Virus record (IMG/VR): IMGVR_UViG_2703718825_000004
Strand: one strand, 5' to 3'
Length of the DNA: 8,067 nt
Source: a virus
Taxonomy: Duplodnaviria > Heunggongvirae > Uroviricota > Caudoviricetes
Of the stretch, positions 1 to 7,218 are shown piece by piece. The position numbers were made by a program, and so were the translations under genes. Numbering within the stretch: the first letter of the stretch is position 1; the number at the start of each line of letters is the position of its first letter. The notes below the pieces were generated by a model. That model was not told where the DNA came from and did not search any database. It saw nothing but the letters and a program-made list of their open reading frames with translations.

Positions 1-32
1 GGTGGCGAGGGATTTCTCCCCCGCCTGGTCTC

Positions 33-188
33 TTACTCCTCAGGTTCGTAAGCTGTGAAGACAGCGACCTCCGTCTGGCCGGTTCGGATTCGTACCTCGC
101 AGAGGTCTTTCCTCGTTACCAGTGCCGTCACTATGACGGTTAAACAGATGACGATCAGGGCGATTAACATCGCCTTTTGCTGCTTCAT
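33..188 (-). CDS. hokD: Hok/Gef-family type I membrane toxin (HokD/RelF-like), 51 aa
   Basis: Minus-strand translation MKQQKAMLIALIVICLTVIVTALVTRKDLCEVRIRTGQTEVAVFTAYEPEE matches, from memory, HokD/RelF and the Hok-family pattern (one TM helix, RKDLCEV...TGQTEVAVF...YE). AAGGAG Shine-Dalgarno lies about 9 nt upstream of the ATG at 188-186. Imperfect GC-rich hairpin in the 3' region (about 3-29). Sequence identity is recalled, not searched. Confidence 0.85.
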   Translation of the reverse strand: MKQQKAMLIALIVICLTVIVTALVTRKDLCEVRIRTGQTEVAVFTAYEPEE

Positions 189-245
189 AACCTGCTTCTC
201 CTTGCCTTTCGGCGCGTAAGAGGCTAACCTACGTTTGTGAAGCAT
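33..245 (-). CDS. Mok-like in-frame upstream reading frame overlapping hok (70 aa)
   Basis: Same frame as hok, starting at ATG 245-243 (MLHKRRLASYAPKGKEKQV then MKQQ...). This resembles the MokC/HokC arrangement in which mok is an N-terminally extended frame of hok. No convincing SD before this ATG; inference. Confidence 0.4.
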   Translation of the reverse strand: MLHKRRLASYAPKGKEKQVMKQQKAMLIALIVICLTVIVTALVTRKDLCEVRIRTGQTEVAVFTAYEPEE

Positions 246-431
246 AGATTGGGCCTCAGATTAATGTTAAGCGTCTTGCAGGACGCGTAATGTTAACTGG
301 GGCTTTTCTCTGTCTGCCTTACGGTGGCATGCCCGAGGCAGACAGCCTCAAGCACCCGCAGCAATTCTACTTAACTCTCGCTTTACAGCAAACCGTTTTG
401 CCCGATATGGGAATTCCCATACGGAATGAAT

Positions 432-536
432 TCAGTTCCCCAGGCGCTCCATCAAAAACACAACCAGGCAGTAAACACCCACAACAGCAATAACAGCCAG
501 AGCGCCTTCCATTACCAGTGAAATATCATCCGACAT
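432..536 (-). CDS. 34-aa small hydrophobic (single-TM) protein, unknown function
   Basis: Below the 60-aa cutoff of the ORF track. ATG at 536-534 is preceded by AAGGGAGGG (strong SD); stop TGA at 434-432. Translation MSDDISLVMEGALAVIAVVGVYCLVVFLMERLGN has an acidic N-terminus and one predicted TM helix. Sigma70-like promoter upstream on the minus strand (about 600-570: TTGCTA-N17-GTATAT). Confidence 0.35.
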   Translation of the reverse strand: MSDDISLVMEGALAVIAVVGVYCLVVFLMERLGN

Positions 537-645
537 ATTCCCTCCCTTGGTGTGAATCCCGGCGAACGTTTTTACCCCCACCGACAAATAACATATACTA
601 GAAAAGCAATAGCTATAGCAACGCCTGCAAATGCATCTGGCCGGC

Positions 646-1209
646 TCATTGGTTCTCCCCCTGTGTCGCTTCTACTGCGATCTGACTGGCGTATTCGTTA
701 ATGGTAACGATAAGTTCTTGCTCGGCCTCATCCAGACAACTACCGATACCTCGCCTGTCCACTTCAGAAGCATCGAAATCTGCACGAAGCCTGGCGACCT
801 TCAGGATTGCGGACAACACCTCATCAGGGATTGCCGGAGAGTTGGTTGACGTTTCCGAGATTATCCGAAAATTATTGGTTGACGAACCCTTATTTTCCCG
901 AAAGTTTCCAGCCTGAAGCATGGCGGCGCGGTGACACCAGATAATCCAGCCAAGCGCCATATCCCATGCCATGTATTCTCTATCGCCATTTTTTGCTCTG
1001 CGGCGATCTACAGATTCCCCGAAACGCTTCTCCATAAATAATTCATAGGCTGCCCGTTCATCCGATACTGATGCCAGTGATGCCAGTGCAATTTTTAATG
1101 CGGTAAGCATGTTGTTTTGATCTTCATCGAGTCCGAACGGTATTTCATCCCGTGATGACTCAATTCCGGTAATCGTGTACTGTAGCCATTCTTTGGTTAA
1201 TTCAGTCAT
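646..1209 (-). CDS. Hypothetical phage protein, 187 aa, unknown function
   Basis: Intact ATG-initiated ORF. Preceded by an AT-rich region (1261-1335) and two hairpins in the 5' leader. I do not recognise the protein family. Confidence 0.6.
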   Translation of the reverse strand: MTELTKEWLQYTITGIESSRDEIPFGLDEDQNNMLTALKIALASLASVSDERAAYELFMEKRFGESVDRRRAKNGDREYMAWDMALGWIIWCHRAAMLQAGNFRENKGSSTNNFRIISETSTNSPAIPDEVLSAILKVARLRADFDASEVDRRGIGSCLDEAEQELIVTINEYASQIAVEATQGENQ

Positions 1210-1218
1210 TTTTCACTA

Positions 1219-1234
1219 CCGCCCTTTCGGGCGG
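1219..1234 (-). promoter_or_regulatory. GC-rich hairpin (CCGCCC-GAAA-GGGCGG on the minus strand) between an AGGAGA motif and the start codon of the 187-aa gene
   Basis: Perfect 6-bp stem with 4-nt loop seen directly. It sits 9 nt upstream of ATG 1209 and just downstream of an SD-like AGGAGA (1240-1235). A second hairpin GAGGG-N9-CCCTC lies at about 1246-1264. Confidence 0.3.
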
Positions 1235-1335
1235 TCTCCTGATGTTCTGAGGGTGCAGGAATCCCTCCGGTTAAGGATTTAATAAAAATCATTTCTGATT
1301 TAAATTTTCAGTGTTTAGTTGTTGGTTTATAGCCT

Positions 1336-1647
1336 TTATGCTTCGGCCTTATTTCTCAGCCATACACAAACAGGACCATCTTCGGTGTCATGTATCGAAC
1401 CGATAAACCATCCCTCACCTTCTGGTCGCTCAGGTTCCCATGCTGAAATATCAGGGCCATCTGCGTCCAGATTAAAATCATCTTCATCCATACTACGGAT
1501 AGCCCACTGAAGATTATTTTTCTCCATCCAGGCGTTAAACTCTTCCGTTGAAATATATTCCCGACCATCACAGAATTTTTCATATTCAGGATGCGTCCAG
1601 CAGCCATATTCATTACGTTCCACTGGCATTTCTTTAATTGCGCTCAT
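1336..1647 (-). CDS. Hypothetical phage protein, 103 aa, acidic
   Basis: ATG 1647-1645 overlaps the upstream gene stop (ATGA). Strong SD AAGGGGGG 4-5 nt upstream. Acidic C-terminal half (DEDDFNLDADGPD...). Family not recognised. Confidence 0.65.
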   Translation of the reverse strand: MSAIKEMPVERNEYGCWTHPEYEKFCDGREYISTEEFNAWMEKNNLQWAIRSMDEDDFNLDADGPDISAWEPERPEGEGWFIGSIHDTEDGPVCVWLRNKAEA

Positions 1648-1832
1648 TTACCCCCCTTATTTAATTTTCTACGACACTTTTTACAATCATCTGGACTTTC
1701 GAATGTATCCGGCTCACGCTCATTGCCAAAATACATCCACCCACCGCAAGTACTTGTTATTTCACCTTCAGCAAAATAATGATGCTTTTTCGCCATAAGT
1801 GGCCTTGCCCAGCCCGGATTCGTTTTACTCAC
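1644..1832 (-). CDS. Hypothetical small protein, 62 aa, GTG start, CxxC-containing
   Basis: GTG start at 1832-1830 overlaps the stop of the upstream gene (GTGA). Excellent SD AAGGAGG 6 nt upstream. Contains CKKC plus a further Cys, possibly a Zn-binding nin-region-type small protein (inference). Confidence 0.6.
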   Translation of the reverse strand: MSKTNPGWARPLMAKKHHYFAEGEITSTCGGWMYFGNEREPDTFESPDDCKKCRRKLNKGGK

Positions 1833-2185
1833 TTGTTGCCTCCTTTGCGAAGCTCTGCGACTAACTCGTCACATATGTGCGTCAAAGAGCAAAGTTTGAT
1901 TGCTGGATGTTCGCGCACCATCTCCACACCCTGCGCCCGCAATTCTGCCAGAAAAGCGTAGGGGTCAGTTTTTTCACTGTGGTACATGGCATCATAGATA
2001 ATCATTGCAGCGACACCTGCCTGTCCTGCATCTGTGACGGATATATGCTCAAGGGCTACGGCCATTGCGTGTTTCAACCTCTCATTTTCCACCTCAAGCA
2101 CCACACGATTAGCCTCCAGCTCTTCTATGCGTTTTTTTGCTGCTCCCAGCTCAACACGCAGCTCCTGATAGTTAATCTCGCTCAT
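1829..2185 (-). CDS. Hypothetical phage protein, 118 aa, N-terminal coiled-coil
   Basis: ATG 2185-2183 overlaps the upstream stop (ATGA). SD GGGAGGAAGGAGA immediately upstream. N-terminus (ELRVELGAAKKRIEELEANRVVLEVENERLKHAM) looks coiled-coil. Confidence 0.65.
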   Translation of the reverse strand: MSEINYQELRVELGAAKKRIEELEANRVVLEVENERLKHAMAVALEHISVTDAGQAGVAAMIIYDAMYHSEKTDPYAFLAELRAQGVEMVREHPAIKLCSLTHICDELVAELRKGGNK

Positions 2186-2406
2186 TCTCCTTCCTCCCGC
2201 ACTGCTGTTTTATATGCCCGAAGCACATGCGATGTTTTTCCTGACACAGTGCTTCTCAGAAAGAAAATTCCACTGGTGTTTATTACCAGATACGGGTCAG
2301 CAAGACGCAGCATATCCAGTATGTGATTATGTTTTCTTGTTTCCAGCACCGTACTGGAAATAAGCATATGTGACACGGGGCCGAAATCATGATATCTGAT
2401 TTTCAT
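2182..2406 (-). CDS. Hypothetical phage protein, 74 aa
   Basis: ATG 2406-2404 with AGGGTGA SD-like motif. First gene of a four-gene translationally coupled chain (2406 down to 1336). Confidence 0.55.
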   Translation of the reverse strand: MKIRYHDFGPVSHMLISSTVLETRKHNHILDMLRLADPYLVINTSGIFFLRSTVSGKTSHVLRAYKTAVREEGE

Positions 2407-2427
2407 ATCATCACCCTGCTGTAAAAA

Positions 2428-3126
2428 TTACCCGTTATCTCCTGTCGTTATTTTCTGTATGACATCACGATGCTTATTAATTTCCCGCAGCGCGGCGCAT
2501 AAGCGCTCCCACTTCTGAACCTGACCTTTTGCCCGGCGCAGCTCGCGGTTAGCCACATGCAGCGATGGTAAAATCAGACCATCCGGATGCTTTCTGATGA
2601 ACGACGACTGTGACTGCACTGTGACCGCCACACTTTCAGTTTTAATTTCTTCCTGTGTTTCCGCTTCCCGGACTGGTAACGCAACACCTGCCGGCTGAGG
2701 AAAGGCTTTACCATCGGTTTCCGTTACCGATGCAGCTTTCGGCTCTGCCGGTAAATTATCGCCCGGTATGCAGTAACGATATTGACCGTCCTGATTTACG
2801 CGAATCAGACGACCTTTGCTGACAGCCATCGCCAGTGATGAATTCGCCCGGCGGGAGGTAATCCCGAACATTAACGCCAGTTCGTCAGCCGACTGAGGAC
2901 CATGCTGTTCAATCGCGTTAATCAGCATCTCTGCAGTGGTTTTTGGGGCCGCTTCAGTTGCCTCACTCGTCAGCCACCACATCGACCCCTTGTTATCAGC
3001 TTCGCCACGACGCTTCAGCTTCCAGAGTTCGGTAACAGCATCGTCACGGCTGATTTCAAGACGGGCTGCAATCTCGTGCGACGAGGCTTTTTTCAGTGCT
3101 TTCAGTGCGTCAAAAACGGTTTCCAT
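2428..3126 (-). CDS. Hypothetical phage protein, about 232 aa, with two winged-helix-like segments (possible DNA-binding)
   Basis: ORF track frame 2428..3192. The likely start is the internal ATG at 3126-3124 (METVFDALK...), preceded by GGGAGGA at 8-nt spacing. Winged-helix assignment is inference from sequence pattern only. Confidence 0.65.
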
Positions 3127-3160
3127 TAAATTTTCCTCCCGGTAAAAATTACTTCTCAAC

Positions 3161-3823
3161 TCAGACAAAACCGGCCGCCTTCCGGCGCTCATATTCCTGT
3201 TTCAGCAATTCAATTGGCGTTGGCCCTGGCGGGCGTTTGGGTGCTGCCAGTTGTCGCCGGACTGGCGGAACACTGAGGCCATTACCAACATGCTTTGCCC
3301 ATTTCGTCAGCTGCCTTTCCACAAGCCGTTTTAACTCCCCTTCGGTCATCTGGCGCTCAATCCCCTTTGAACGCATCTCGAGGCAAATGTGGTACAGCAC
3401 CGGCTGTGGCCACGGGTATTTATCACTCCCGTCGTACCGCCAGGATTCATTCCTCCAGCGACGGTATTCCTCCATCACGGCATCCACCGTCAGGCCAAAT
3501 GGATTTGCCCCGCTCTCCGAAATCAACGCCACAAACTCAGCCAGATCCGGAGGCCACGTTTCACCCGCCCGGCAGCGGTCCATGCACCGACGGCAGATCT
3601 GCCGGATTTGCTGTTCAGTCATCGCGCCAATCTGAGCAATCCAGAGTTTCGACGGCGCAGCCCCGTTCTTCTGAGTCCAGCGGTTCGAATACACCTCCCC
3701 CATAAGCTCCCACAGCTTCCAGGCCGTTTCCGTTGCTGATAAATCCGTTTTCACGTTCCCACTGTTCGCGTGCAGCCCGGATTTCCTGAACTGCCCGTGA
3801 TGCGGTGCCACCTGGTGCTGCAT
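3161..3823 (-). CDS. Lambda-P-like replication protein (DnaB helicase loader)
   Basis: Translation is co-linear with lambda P as recalled (e.g. [13 protein letters not shown] vs PSPGQFVAWCREE; [16 protein letters not shown] vs YPWKSNAHYWLVTNLYQNMR; [13 protein letters not shown] vs TDAELRRKAADEL). Start is uncertain: ATG 3823 has SD AAGGGGG but overlaps the O-like gene by 209 nt; alternative ATGs at 3703 (SD TGGGAG) and 3622 (8-nt overlap with the O-like stop). Confidence 0.7.
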
Positions 3824-4652
3824 GGCTTACCCCCTTGCTGACTGGTTTTACCTGTGCCCTGACGTGCTGCACGTGGCGGGCAAATTTCTGCTCCCACTGA
3901 ACCTGCGTGAAAACCTTCCCCTCCGCCATCCAGTAATCCCGGAATGCGGCAAGCTCAGCAGGTGTAAACTCAGGCTCAGGCAGAGCCATACCCCACACTG
4001 CTGCCCGCTGTCGAAAATCCGGCGACGGTTGCCAGACTCCAGTCATCGGAAATTTCCCGATCGGTTCGCTCAGGCCGTCCAGGTATTCAGGTTCGGCTGT
4101 CTGCAACGACGCGTCATTCAACTCACCGGTCGTAGCACTCTCGCGCATGCGCGCGTTATGTGTGGGGTTTAATTCTTTATCTGTATCTGTATCTGTCGTG
4201 ATTTGTCGTGACATATGCGTGACGCGTCGTGACTCATCGTGACAATCAGTGTTCTGCTTCCGCAGTCTTTCCCGCTCCCGCTGCGCTCTCTTGCGCTCTG
4301 CCGGGGATTTTGCGGTTTGCGAAACATTACCGTTATCCTCCTTCATCACCTGGCGTTTTTCCCATCCGGAAATAAGATCACCATCCAGAACTCGCCCCTG
4401 CATTGCATGCAAAATTGAATCAATCACGTCTTCCGTCACATCAAGCGCACTTGCTAAATCTTCCGTCGTGACATCAATGTGACCACGTAGTGACACGCCG
4501 TGACATGTCGTGACATTTCGTGACGCACTCACCAGAAGGTGGATATACACCGCCATCACTGTTGCGATTGGCTGTCCTGAGACCCTGGCAATGGTTCGCC
4601 ATTTGGGATCATTTGGCATGTCATGCCACAATCTGAGCCAGGCATTAGCCAT
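3615..4652 (-). CDS. Replication initiator (lambda-O-like / replisome organizer), about 345 aa
   Basis: Lies immediately upstream of the P-like gene. Likely start ATG 4652-4650 (MANAWLRLWHDMPNDPKWR...) with SD GAGGTGA; the ORF track starts at GTG 4658. Two clusters of GTGAC direct repeats at about 10-bp spacing lie inside the gene, as the ori iterons do in lambda O. N-terminal WLRL...ATVMAVYIHLL resembles replisome-organizer N-termini (inference). Confidence 0.7.
   Translation of the reverse strand: MANAWLRLWHDMPNDPKWRTIARVSGQPIATVMAVYIHLLVSASRNVTTCHGVSLRGHIDVTTEDLASALDVTEDVIDSILHAMQGRVLDGDLISGWEKRQVMKEDNGNVSQTAKSPAERKRAQRERERLRKQNTDCHDESRRVTHMSRQITTDTDTDKELNPTHNARMRESATTGELNDASLQTAEPEYLDGLSEPIGKFPMTGVWQPSPDFRQRAAVWGMALPEPEFTPAELAAFRDYWMAEGKVFTQVQWEQKFARHVQHVRAQVKPVSKGVSHAAPGGTASRAVQEIRAAREQWERENGFISNGNGLEAVGAYGGGVFEPLDSEERGCAVETLDCSDWRDD
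4196..4243. repeat. Iteron-like direct repeats, cluster 1 (five copies of CGTGA(C/T), about 10-bp period), putative ori core
   Basis: Seen directly: tgtCGTGAtttgtCGTGACatatgCGTGACgcgtCGTGACtcatCGTGACaatc. Flanked at 4167-4195 by an AT-rich tract that includes (TATCTG)x3, and by the palindrome CGCGCATGCGCG at 4143-4154. Confidence 0.55.
4468..4523. repeat. Iteron-like direct repeats, cluster 2 (six copies of GTGAC, 10-11-bp period)
   Basis: Seen directly: cGTGACatcaatGTGACcacgtaGTGACacgccGTGACatgtcGTGACatttcGTGACg, in the same orientation as cluster 1, within the 5' part of the O-like gene. Confidence 0.5.
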
Positions 4653-4720
4653 ACTCACCTCATCTGATACCGAACTTTACCCTCGAACATCCGGAATAAA
4701 TCCGGCATGAATATTGTTGG

Positions 4721-5146
4721 TCAATGCACGACAACAGCATTACCAGGCTGACCACCACTGTTAGTCAGGGTGCCCCAGGCGATCGCCGCTGCGACAAAAT
4801 CATCCACATCTTTCACCAGCCGATCCCTCCGTTCGACGATCTCACGGTAATATTCAGAGCTGTGACTGCGCATACGGGCCACCAGCAGAGGCGGCATTGC
4901 CTTTTCGATCGCCGGTAACAGAGCCTGAATTTTTTCAACAGCATCAGGGGTGTCTTTATCCAGCCAACGGAAAATTTTCTGGGTATTACGAGCCAGGGCT
5001 TCCGGATGGCTGTCGTCGTACAGTTCCGGGAACGTCATCCCCAGCTCGAAATAAGTCCGGGCTATTTCAGCTGCAGGAACTTTCTCACCGTCCGGATAGG
5101 CCCAGGCATTGATCGCCATGCGGATGTGCTCATGTTTGATTTTCAT
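4721..5146 (-). CDS. ydaT: YdaT-family protein (CII-position regulator of Rac-type prophages), 141 aa
   Basis: Starts MKIKHEHI and ends VVVH, as Rac YdaT does from memory. ATG 5146-5144 overlaps the Cro-like stop (ATGA). Sits in the cII position between cro and O. Confidence 0.75.
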   Translation of the reverse strand: MKIKHEHIRMAINAWAYPDGEKVPAAEIARTYFELGMTFPELYDDSHPEALARNTQKIFRWLDKDTPDAVEKIQALLPAIEKAMPPLLVARMRSHSSEYYREIVERRDRLVKDVDDFVAAAIAWGTLTNSGGQPGNAVVVH

Positions 5147-5370
5147 GAATCCCCCTTTCCTTCGCCCTGAGTGGTATCCTTCTTTTTGTAAAGTTCTGGG
5201 TTCAAAGATAATTTCCCCTTGGAGTATGCAGCAGCTTCCGCAGCCCTCCCCTTCGGAACTATTTCACCAGGACGCTTACGCCACATGTAAATAGCTTCGC
5301 GGGTTATCCCATAAAAATCGGCAACCCTCTGAACAGAACCAAAAAACTGGACAAGTTCATCAACTCGCAT
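5143..5370 (-). CDS. Cro-like HTH regulator (DicC/YdaS family), 75 aa
   Basis: Divergent from the CI-like repressor. SD GGAGGT 4 nt upstream of ATG 5370. Pattern L..FGS...VA...GI...IY.W.....VP.GRA shared with DicC as recalled. Confidence 0.8.
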   Translation of the reverse strand: MRVDELVQFFGSVQRVADFYGITREAIYMWRKRPGEIVPKGRAAEAAAYSKGKLSLNPELYKKKDTTQGEGKGDS

Positions 5371-5464
5371 TTTACCTCCTAAATCTAAGTATTTTTAGAT
5401 TACAAGATAATTTTTTTTAGGTCAATGCAATCTAAAATAATTTATATTCAATTTGCAGGAGAAA
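5371..5464. promoter_or_regulatory. OR-like divergent promoter/operator region between the cro-like and cI-like genes
   Basis: 94-bp AT-rich intergenic region. Inverted repeat AATCTAAgtatttTTAGATT at 5382-5401, and a second inverted repeat TTTTAG-N11-CTAAAA at 5415-5437. -10-like TATATT at 5443-5448 for the cI-like gene; TTGACC-N17-TAATCT on the minus strand for the cro-like gene. Confidence 0.6.
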
Positions 5465-6112
5465 ATGATGGAAAGCCTTGGCATCAGGCTTAAGAGACTT
5501 AGAAAAGATAAGGGGCTGACCCAAGTAGAACTGGGTAAGCTTTCAGGCGTGACTGGGGTTACTATAGGGTACTGGGAGAAAGATCTAAACGAACCAGGTA
5601 GCAAAGCTCTAAGTAAGTTAGCCCAGGCATTAGGAACTACTGAGTCCTATCTCCTATATGGAGTATCGTCTCCTGAATTATCTTTTGTACAAAGTACCTC
5701 AGGCACCAAGATCCCCTACCTTTCGTGGGGTGAGGCGATTTCTTTCCTAATCTTAAAAGGAGAGAAAACAATGGGAAATGTCGATAGGATCACCACATTC
5801 TTTGATGTCGAGGAAGGTGATTTTGCCGTTTCAATGCCTGATGACACAATGCATAACCCATCAGGATCACCGAGTATCCCAGTTGGTGCTACTGTGATCC
5901 TAAGGCCAGGAGAAAGTTATAAAAATGGCAGCATCGTCGCTGTAATAGTTCCGGATCCGCTTAAAAATGAACCATCTATGACTATAAAGAAATTAGTTAT
6001 TGATGGGAAGCTTGTGTATTTAAGCCCTCTCAATCCACGCTATCAGTCATCCTTACTTACACCAGAGTGTAAAATTGTTGCCGTAGCAAAAGGTGTACAG
6101 TTCAACTTATAA
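5465..6112 (+). CDS. Lambda-CI-like prophage repressor (N-terminal HTH_XRE plus C-terminal LexA-like S24 peptidase domain)
   Basis: N-terminal LGIRLKRLRKDKGLTQVELGKLSGVTGVTIGYWEK is a classic XRE HTH. C-terminal region has the S24 Ser motif (AVSMPD) and Lys motif (TIKKLVIDGKLVYLSPLNPRY, close to lambda cI [20 protein letters not shown]). The ORF track starts at TTG 5453; ATG at 5465 or 5468 follows AGGAG at 5457-5461. Confidence 0.9.
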   Translation: MMESLGIRLKRLRKDKGLTQVELGKLSGVTGVTIGYWEKDLNEPGSKALSKLAQALGTTESYLLYGVSSPELSFVQSTSGTKIPYLSWGEAISFLILKGEKTMGNVDRITTFFDVEEGDFAVSMPDDTMHNPSGSPSIPVGATVILRPGESYKNGSIVAVIVPDPLKNEPSMTIKKLVIDGKLVYLSPLNPRYQSSLLTPECKIVAVAKGVQFNL

Positions 6113-6802: not shown

Positions 6803-6855
6803 TTTCTGGTGACGTTTGGCGGTATCAGTTTTACTCCGTGACTGCTCTGCCGCCC
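6803..6855 (+). ncRNA. dicF: DicF small regulatory RNA (ftsZ-targeting sRNA of the Qin-type dicB operon)
   Basis: Sequence TTTCTGGTGACGTTTGGCGGTATCAGTTTTACTCCGTGACTGCTCTGCCGCCC matches the 53-nt DicF sequence as I recall it, followed by a T5 tail (6856-6860). It sits immediately upstream of dicB as in K-12. Confidence 0.85.
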
Positions 6856-7029
6856 TTTTTAAAGTGAATTTTGTGATGCGGTGAATGCGGCTGAGCGCAC
6901 GCGGAACAGTTAAAACCAAAAACAGTGTTATGGGTGGATTCTCTGTATCCGGCGTTAATTGTTAACTGGTTAACGTCACCTGGAGGCACCAGGCACTGCA
7001 TCACAAAATTCATTGTTGAGGACGCGATA

Positions 7030-7218
7030 ATGGAAACGTTATTACCAAACGTTAATACGTCTGAAGGTTGTTTTGAAATTGGTGTCACTATCAGTAACCC
7101 TGTATTTACTGAAGATGCCATTAACAAGAGAAAACACGAACGGGAGTTATTAAATAAAATATGCATTCTTTCAATGCTGGCCCGTTTACGTCCGATACAA
7201 AAAGGATGCTGGCAATGA
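7030..7218 (+). CDS. dicB: DicB cell-division inhibitor (MinC-activating), 62 aa
   Basis: Translation METLLPNVNTSEGCFEIGVTISNPVFTEDAINKRKHERELLNKICILSMLARLRPIQKGCWQ matches DicB as recalled. SD GAGGA 7 nt upstream of ATG 7030. The ORF-track frame 6925..7218 is an upstream extension crossing the DicF terminator. Confidence 0.9.
   Translation: METLLPNVNTSEGCFEIGVTISNPVFTEDAINKRKHERELLNKICILSMLARLRPIQKGCWQ

Follow-up and report, generated by a model that had tools for sequence, protein, structure and literature searches.

How a gene is translated when its Shine-Dalgarno (SD) motif lies 25 nt from the start codon, with a stable hairpin filling the interval, is the question raised by a 187-amino-acid (aa) open reading frame (ORF) in an 8,067-nt stretch of viral DNA (the window) from the IMG/VR record IMGVR_UViG_2703718825_000004 (Caudoviricetes). 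By BLAST, the window matches a lambdoid prophage found in E. coli O157 strains at 99.9-100% identity; the host element is identified as a Rac/Sp-type lambdoid prophage of E. coli O157, with the 187-aa gene on the minus strand. From sequence comparison, we lean towards reading the leader of this gene as a portable split (noncontiguous) ribosome-binding cassette of lambdoid (Rac/Sp/mEp460-type) prophages. The observations reported here concern the anatomy, conservation, portability and fixed spacing of this cassette, the want of any other accessible SD motif, and the positions at which mosaic junctions fall.

In the proposed mechanism, the gene would be read, along with its neighbours, from the long early rightward (pR) transcript, read-through from pR being the simplest assumption for its transcription. 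The 16-nt hairpin would fold and be looped out, placing the SD motif effectively 6-9 nt (9 nt here) from the AUG instead of 22-25 nt (25 nt here), and we infer that the hairpin promotes initiation and does not hold it back. Recombination inside the cassette would swap the downstream genes, because the same ~25-75 nt precede many different genes, and the cassette would double as a mosaic joint.

Anatomy, spacing and spread of the cassette

The features of the leader and its two flanking genes, in window coordinates, are as follows.

646-1209, minus strand: the 187-aa accessory gene (WP_000137954.1, annotated as hypothetical)
1207-1209, minus strand: ATG start codon; the N-terminus MTELTKEWLQ is common to homologues
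1210-1218, minus strand: tail between stem and ATG, TAGTGAAAA / UAGUGAAAA, 9 nt, A-rich; family range 6-9 nt
1219-1234, minus strand: hairpin 2, CCGCCC-GAAA-GGGCGG (CCGCCC 1234-1229, GAAA 1228-1225, GGGCGG 1224-1219), a stem of 6 G+C pairs capped by a GNRA tetraloop; the pair A1235-U1218 can lengthen it
1235-1240, minus strand: SD motif AGGAGA, flush with the stem and 25 nt in linear distance from the ATG
1249-1267, minus strand: hairpin 1, GAGGG (1267-1263) and CCCTC (1253-1249) with a 9-nt loop; weak, and missing from the minimal cassette
1274-1277, minus strand: UCCU, the predicted partner of AGGA of the SD motif (p ~0.6 in the window version)
1210-1283, minus strand: core cassette of ~73 nt, which moves as a unit among different upstream and downstream genes
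1284-1335, minus strand: AT-rich 5' half of the spacer, with two diverged versions in the family
1336-1647, minus strand: upstream 103-aa gene (phrog_1372), often but not always found to the left of the cassette

The initial annotation, made from the window alone, had described a 126-bp AT-rich spacer upstream of the 187-aa gene, which was confirmed (1210-1335, 40.5% GC), and the positions it gave for AGGAGA, the perfect CCGCCC-GAAA-GGGCGG stem-loop and the ATG are every one exact on the sequence. Both of the leader hairpins that it reported are also present, hairpin 2 being very stable (-12.4 kcal/mol, or -14.1 kcal/mol with the flanking A-U pair; cited stability range, -12.4 to -14.4) and hairpin 1 weak (-5.8 kcal/mol). 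The 146-nt leader as a whole is more stable than its shuffled counterparts (z = -2.78; 2 of 200 shuffles were as good), and the recurrence of hairpin 2 in several hundred loci means that it is not a product of chance.

A linear SD-AUG distance of 22-25 nt, as found throughout the family, is far outside the functional range, and the leader offers the ribosome little else. The predicted hybrid of AGGAGA with the 3' end of 16S rRNA amounts to -7.4 kcal/mol (-10.3 kcal/mol for the family consensus, AGGAGG), and the tail UAGUGAAAA has no SD potential (-0.4 kcal/mol). The sole other SD-like site, GGCGGU in the 3' arm of hairpin 2 (-8.2 kcal/mol), was rejected as energetically disfavoured, as it is locked in the hairpin and its use would cost the 12-14 kcal/mol needed to open it. 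The window shows three structural features expected of a split ribosome-binding site, namely an SD motif more than about 15 nt from the start codon (25 nt), a hairpin that leaves 9 nt, and no alternative accessible SD motif.

What is kept when the leader shrinks is most apparent from a scan anchored on hairpin 2 rather than hairpin 1, which returned 173 instances. Thirty-two of these form a minimal class that runs from an upstream TAA through TGTC(A/G)GGAGG, the hairpin and 6-9 nt to the ATG; having neither hairpin 1 nor the AT-rich part, its intercistronic gap measures 32-35 nt and therefore leaves no room for a promoter. Since the SD motif, the hairpin and the short tail are all retained in this class, the conserved functional core consists of those three elements before the start codon. 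Across the family, the hairpin of this core has 6-7 bp and a GNRA loop, and the nucleotides after it are A/U-rich. Spacing statistics, compiled over 96 distinct cassette versions, point in the same direction: a pentamer flush with the stem reads GGAGG in 76 and GGAGA in 13 (89/96 together), and the first start codon of a long ORF stands 6, 7, 8 or 9 nt past the stem in 17, 25, 4 and 25 versions, respectively (71/96 in total). A spacing of 11 nt was seen in three versions, which precede a Q-family gene, carry a GGAG of their own after the hairpin and constitute the only class with such spacing.

The cassette is both widespread and separable from its surroundings. Of the complete E. coli genomes examined (5,426), 762 carry the core, in a median of 2 copies and at most 4. 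Among 80 IMG/VR loci retrieved via the upstream 103-aa protein, the spacer and hairpin stand nearly unchanged behind the 103-aa gene in ~60; the other ~20 have no spacer, and the 103-aa gene there overlaps (is coupled to) a different downstream gene, which makes the spacer a separable unit. When the spacer alone was used as the query, its 3' ~73 nt (window 1283-1211) were found behind other upstream genes as well (DUF4014-neighbouring genes, DUF4406 and an S-adenosylmethionine (SAM) methyltransferase), in both the nin-like region and the early-left exo-xis/ea region and sometimes twice per phage. On the downstream side, the cassette lies in sense orientation before at least five unrelated accessory gene families, the cargo comprising DUF7167 (60 aa), DUF4014 (72 aa, membrane), the antitermination gene Q, a 43-aa ORF and several ALASL/DUF551-type mosaic proteins; the 187-aa protein belongs to the 'ALASL'-type mosaic cargo group. 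The K-12 prophages Rac and CPS-53 carry no copy (Qin was left out of the check), and K-12 transcript maps are consequently unusable.

By exact 21-mer, the species breadth of the cassette extends to Shigella, Citrobacter and a probably contaminated metagenome-assembled genome (MAG) only. Ten unrelated bacteria of high GC content (L254-L260, L264-L266) share the same 21-mer, GGAGGCCGCCCGAAAGGGCGG, but there it lies within ordinary terminators of the intrinsic type, which have a T-run and a longer stem (...GGCGGCCTC); the presence of the hairpin sequence does not by itself identify the cassette. Near-identical cassettes with DUF7167 cargo were encountered in a 3-kb scaffold of a MAG labelled Collinsella sp. 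(L263) and in the Actinobacillus phage vB_Apl-pPE4 (PP818812.1), and these suggest either very recent transfer or an artefact of binning or host assignment. The 5' half of the spacer (1284-1335; also L086, L084 and others) exists as the versions ...CTGAAAATTTAAATCAGAAATGATTTTTATTAAAT and ...CTGAATAATTAAATTYAGCACTGTWAAWAAAATTTAAT, both of which contain a short AU-rich inverted repeat (CTGA...TCAG / CTGAAT...ATTCAG).

Stem variation and the proposed route of translation

Noncontiguous ribosome-binding sites have been demonstrated by mutagenesis for T4 genes 38 and 25, in which a hairpin shortens the effective distance from 22 to 5 nt and from 27 to 11 nt, respectively (PMC3014915; PMC7297116). 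The present leader resembles these sites in that the SD motif is too far from the start codon linearly (22 and 27 nt in T4; 25 nt here and 22-25 nt in the family), a stable hairpin fills the gap to leave 5-11 nt (9 nt here and 6-9 nt in the family), and the arrangement is conserved among related phages. Whereas each T4 site serves one gene, however, a single unit here serves at least five unrelated families, recurs at 2-4 copies per host genome and lies at mosaic junctions; it has no sequence relationship to the T4 sites, and the mutagenesis is that of T4, the present assignment being drawn from sequence and analogy. The suggestion of the initial annotation that the folded hairpin could bring the SD motif to a functional distance is the one that the comparisons favour most: the motif, the hairpin and the 6-9-nt spacing are kept before unrelated genes, no other SD motif is usable and T4 supplies a precedent. 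It is the likeliest of the proposed mechanisms.

The stem of hairpin 2 is 96.8% paired over 80 distinct versions, and across 49 distinct loci the identity to the window is 97.1% for hairpin 2 and 95.6% for the segment from hairpin 1 to the SD motif, compared with 87.2% for the 103-aa gene. Changes in the stem are asymmetric, C to U in the 5' arm accounting for 10 haplotype positions versus 1 for G to A in the 3' arm; a C-to-U change in the 5' arm keeps G-U pairing on the sense-strand RNA only. Double changes are present at two stem positions (CCACCC/GGGTGG and CTGCCA/TGGTGG). Three scans were also run in which one 5'-arm position was forced to be non-canonical and its partner was left free: at position 3, 14 contigs had A-C and 7 from the same lineage had a compensated A-U; at position 2, 14 contigs had G-G, 4 had A-G and 2 had U-G; and position 5 yielded U-G only (3 contigs). 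The A-U pair at position 3, derived from G-C, is identified as one real compensatory event, and the mismatched stems still fold at about -7 kcal/mol; the covariation support for the stem is best described as modest. In a separate lineage of contigs (L290 and 13 others), the loop of hairpin 1 is replaced by a G-run, CCGGAGGGGGGGGCTGCACCCTC, and hairpin 2 has a G-G mismatch (CGGCCC/GGGCGG); it still lies upstream of an MTELTK-type gene and may represent a decaying or differently regulated variant.

Several observations weigh against the split-site reading. The covariation is weak, with 30-41 of 500 column shuffles reaching the observed measures, and in the scans with a free partner position, mismatched stems (A-C in 14 contigs, G-G in 14, A-G in 4) outnumber the compensated or wobble-paired ones (A-U in 7, U-G in 5). 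In 1.85 Mb of related phage DNA, no SD-hairpin-ATG families with other stems were found; all copies form one lineage, such that recent spread or gene conversion could contribute to the conservation. A few copies of the cassette have no ORF after the hairpin, and the window itself carries AGGAGA, a weaker motif than the AGGAGG of the family. In the fold model of the window version, AGGA pairs with the upstream UCCU and the last A of the motif with U1218, and the UCCU:AGGA pairing would mask the SD motif rather than present it. Lastly, the argument from a spacing penalty uses a formula that is reportedly that of Salis et al. 2009.

The masking predicted by the fold model is the starting point of a rival account, unlikely but not to be dismissed lightly, in which the hairpin, joined in the long form by hairpin 1 and the UCCU:AGGA helix, would limit or gate translation, accessory and possibly toxic cargo being kept low or made responsive to a trans factor, temperature or upstream ribosomes. 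Most of the SD motif is indeed masked in the modelled window version (unpaired probability of AGGA, 0.07-0.29), and the UCCU:AGGA helix is included in the consensus fold; this helix, however, closes a large loop with just 3-4 bp, does not appear in the centroid structure and shows no variation. Small membrane proteins (DUF4014) are among the cargo, and the cassette is identical in 2-4 co-resident copies, so that one factor could act on all of them, yet the minimal class dispenses with UCCU and hairpin 1 while keeping the SD motif, the hairpin and their spacing. Stable structure near a start site is usually inhibitory (cited in PMC7297116), but hairpin 2 itself contains neither the SD core nor the AUG, and a strong GGAGG kept flush with the stem would be hard to explain if it were never used. 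A very unlikely alternative holds the hairpin to be an element of mRNA stability or processing, acting as a barrier to 3' exonucleases on the upstream message or as 5' protection of the cargo message after an RNase E cut in the AU-rich half. The hairpin is G+C-rich, stable and intercistronic, and in the long form an AU-rich single-stranded stretch lies upstream and hairpin 1 would adjoin the new 5' end; nevertheless, an element of this type has no need of a fixed relation to the SD motif and the start codon, and the minimal form lacks the AU-rich part.

The leader also holds a 28-codon ORF, MIFIKSLTGGIPAPSEHQETARKGGSEK (window 1206-1292, minus strand), which crosses both hairpins; its stop codon overlaps the gene start in the sequence ATGA. 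It is scarcely credible that translation of this ORF (1292-1206) is coupled to that of the gene, with ribosomes melting both hairpins on the way. Although the ORF exists in the window and its stop overlaps the ATG, it has no SD motif, its start is an ATG in this lineage only (GTG or ACG in others) and is absent from both the second 5'-half version and the minimal class, one-nucleotide indels occur inside it, and its frame relation to the cargo start varies. The leader-peptide candidate, present here but not conserved, was accordingly rejected, and the ORF is probably not translated.

Transcription and probable mosaic exchange

The initial annotation had further proposed that the spacer contains promoter-like sequences and that the 187-aa gene is an independently promoted, moron-type insertion of lower GC content than the replication genes. 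No minus-strand promoter was found in the spacer by a consensus scan, and the best match of a relaxed sigma-70 scan of the spacer (4+4 of 12) was equalled or beaten by 51% of the 130-nt segments of this sequence and 75% of spacer shuffles; there is, then, no promoter-like match above background by either scan. Moreover, the core homology starts at or after the only -10-like hexamer, and a -35 element is therefore not part of the mobile unit. No terminator-like sites were found in 400-2500, and none before or after the gene, while over 1-5600, which includes the stretch between the cro/cI region and the gene, their count is not above that of shuffles. With respect to composition, the GC content of the gene (47.9%) is lower than that of O and P (54-58%), as had been claimed, but it is not distinctive, since it equals the window mean (48.6%) and exceeds the values of the upstream neighbours (42-44%; neighbours overall, 42-52%).

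These results leave an independently expressed moron with its promoter in the spacer highly improbable, and the insertion claim was not sustained. It is true that the gene slot holds different occupants in related phages, that the spacer is AT-rich and that consensus scans may miss a weak or non-sigma-70 promoter; against this stand the lack of any sigma-70-like match above background, the lack of a terminator on either side, a GC content equal to the window mean and the presence of the conserved SD-hairpin unit in gaps of 32-35 nt as well. The gene is like the morons of lambdoid phages in being an accessory gene in a slot that differs between syntenic phages (PMC2629481), and unlike them in having no promoter signal of its own, no terminator and no distinctive composition. 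Nor is it a conserved core gene of the nin region, the outcome that the initial annotation had named as telling against its proposal: what lies behind the cassette and behind the 103-aa gene varies among related phages, which marks a variable cargo slot.

Two further roles in transcription were considered for the hairpin and rejected. An intrinsic terminator is not supported: neither strand has a U-tract, and the hairpin goes uncalled in the scan. The lambda boxB sequence was used for comparison, and the boxB of lambda N nut sites is alike in being a short G+C stem with a GNRA-type loop (GAAA here; GAAAA in one copy). However, boxA (CGCTCTTTA, up to 1 mismatch) has 0 matches in the window, the hairpin is ~4 kb from pR (in the cro/cI divergent region), several copies stand before accessory genes and no N-like gene is annotated. 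As a separate observation, a minority class of the cassette (L139 11836-11925; L204 3217-3306, minus strand; L262 ~1261-1281, minus strand, from Citrobacter braakii) has the hairpin loop AAAA or GAAA and, after the hairpin, a U-rich stretch (CUGUUCCGCUGUUCAAUUAUCU / CAAUUGUUUGUUAGUU) instead of a start codon; this class could have a terminator-like role.

The edges of the cassette coincide with the joints of the prophage mosaic. In BLAST comparisons with phages and E. coli genomes, similarity to other prophages repeatedly ends at window 1219, 1217 or 1211, positions at which the hairpin finishes on its 3' side or which immediately precede the ATG, and beyond the break lie a Q antiterminator, DUF7167, DUF551-type genes or hypothetical genes. 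Where left and right neighbours are both unrelated, the cassette is the only conserved sequence between them, and the breakpoints coincide with it. As homology breaks at the hairpin or the ATG, the cassette is also a mosaic joint, and it is very probably a site of homologous exchange by which cargo is shuffled. That it should be mainly a recombination linker, conserved by homologous exchange or gene conversion and with no role for the hairpin at the RNA level, is nonetheless distinctly improbable. Such a linker would account for the breakpoints at the cassette edges, the unrelated flanks on both sides, the single lineage and the persistence of mismatched stems in several contexts, and analogous PeSL cassettes of T4-type phages mediate shuffling (PMC2839356); it would leave unexplained why the start codon of unrelated genes stays 6-9 nt past the stem, as well as the sense-RNA-only asymmetry of pairing and the compensatory changes. 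A linker function is also compatible with the split ribosome-binding site rather than exclusive of it.

The PeSL cassettes merit closer comparison, as they too are short, conserved, intergenic stem-loop cassettes with an SD motif at the 3' end that are repeated within a genome, precede non-essential ORFans in variable regions and are associated with gene shuffling (PMC2839356). They differ in having a consensus sigma-70 promoter and a terminator stem-loop, whereas the present cassette has no promoter signal and no U-tract, places its hairpin between the SD motif and the AUG, and resides in temperate lambdoid rather than T4-type phages. On balance, the cassette would seem to be a split ribosome-binding site of the T4 type in its workings and a PeSL-like shuffling cassette without the PeSL promoter and terminator. 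Independently of this comparison, two cassettes were noted ~1,064 bp apart in one nin-like region (L101, reverse strand, ~5229 and 6293; also L132, L169, L178 and L231), the minimal copy preceding a DUF4014 gene and the full copy a DUF7167 gene; in this geometry, recombination between the copies would delete or circularise the intervening genes.

A bolder reading, which we offer tentatively and regard as possible rather than probable, is that the cassette is a natural, mobile 'plug-in' part for translation initiation, the hairpin of which insulates the SD motif from the recombined coding sequence. If so, the early operons of lambdoid prophages would express newly acquired accessory genes at once and in a standardised way, the cassette would provide homology for shuffling, and one trans-acting factor might control all cargo of co-resident prophages. 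It would then be the first split ribosome-binding site outside the T-even phages, and also the first with demonstrated portability from gene to gene. Should the mechanism hold, temperate phages of pathogenic E. coli would have, in the form of a reusable module, the rare split-site principle that is known from two T4 genes, with a bearing on how horizontally acquired genes come to be expressed at once. The joints of the mosaic in the hypervariable ea/nin regions, in lambdoid as well as Stx-type prophages, would be traceable to a concrete sequence. Predictors of ribosome-binding-site strength that use linear SD-AUG spacing would, in addition, badly underestimate hundreds of prophage genes, and the cassette would be a ready-made candidate for an insulated ribosome-binding part. 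Should the mechanism fail, what is left is a conserved intergenic repeat before an ordinary hypothetical prophage gene. No known RNA family was found in the spacer (Rfam, permissive E-value; the window otherwise contains sok, DicF and a sub-threshold STnc100), and the cassette sequence has no match in the searchable literature.

The 187-aa protein and its prophage surroundings

The initial annotation could name no family for the 187-aa protein, and the homology and structure searches it called for were successful in part. Homologues are plentiful (> 4,300, most with PF04448), and the product is assigned as a DUF551/Ea-type mosaic protein without the C-terminal DUF551 domain; by contrast, no family, defence-system or solved-structure match was obtained for the protein itself, neither Pfam (including the DUF551/PF04448 and Ead_Ea22 models), NCBIfam, PADLOC nor the PDB returning a hit by sequence or profile, and PHROGs matched unknown-function families only. 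A conserved core at about residues 40-99 and a second module at about 130-178 are common to longer prophage proteins. A C-terminal DUF551 follows in 28 of 38 aligned homologues and a dATP/dGTP pyrophosphohydrolase domain in 1; the 187-aa protein stops just before the point at which the C-terminal domain begins and shares only the N-terminal modules with DUF551 proteins. DUF551 has been described as a portable domain of mosaic Ea22-type proteins (PMC10834534). Like the Ea22/DUF551 proteins of the exo-xis and nin regions, the 187-aa protein belongs to a type in which a variable N-terminus and a helical core are joined to an exchangeable C-terminal domain, and it is unlike them in ending before that domain and having no Ead_Ea22 or DUF551 match in Pfam. 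Truncation by a recent nonsense mutation was rejected, as the same stop codon and the downstream hokD segment recur in other strains and in 343 genomes, which makes this a stable allele. The AlphaFold2 model, of low confidence (mean predicted local distance difference test score, 54), is all-helical with a disordered linker; purely by analogy, the product could be an oligomerising helical scaffold that belongs to the ea/nin accessory class.

The early rightward operon in which the gene lies is arranged, in the direction of transcription, as follows.

5143-5370, minus strand: cro, followed by a YdaT-family gene, a DnaT-like O gene, P and a DUF1627 gene
2182-2406, minus strand: operon gene
1829-2185, minus strand: operon gene
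1644-1832, minus strand: operon gene
1336-1647, minus strand: the 103-aa gene, followed by the 126-bp spacer
646-1209, minus strand: the 187-aa gene, followed by a 34-aa ORF and hokD/sok

The four small genes from 2182-2406 to 1336-1647 overlap by 4 nt each and are therefore coupled. In the source genome, DUF968, RusA and Q lie beyond hokD/sok. The leftward side is a dicB/DicF-type operon that encodes DUF1391, DicF and DicB; the early-left operon of the prophage is thus of the Qin/dicB type, and an N gene is not annotated. A full-length DicF small RNA is present in this leftward operon at window 6804-6855, plus strand (Rfam RF00039, 76.7 bits, E = 4.6e-16), and beside it lies an STnc100-like match (6853-7062) that, at 35.7 bits, is sub-threshold relative to the gathering score of 47.

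Directly downstream of the 187-aa gene and the 34-aa ORF is a hok/sok type I toxin-antitoxin locus (window 33-357, minus strand), in which the Hok/Gef ORF (70-aa long form, 33-245) is recognised by Pfam (E = 3e-23) and sok by its Rfam model (183-357, 114.9 bits). The annotated 34-aa hydrophobic ORF between the 187-aa gene and hokD (432-536, minus strand), MSDDISLVMEGALAVIAVVGVYCLVVFLMERLGN, has no family match and is preceded by a strong SD motif, GGGAGGG.

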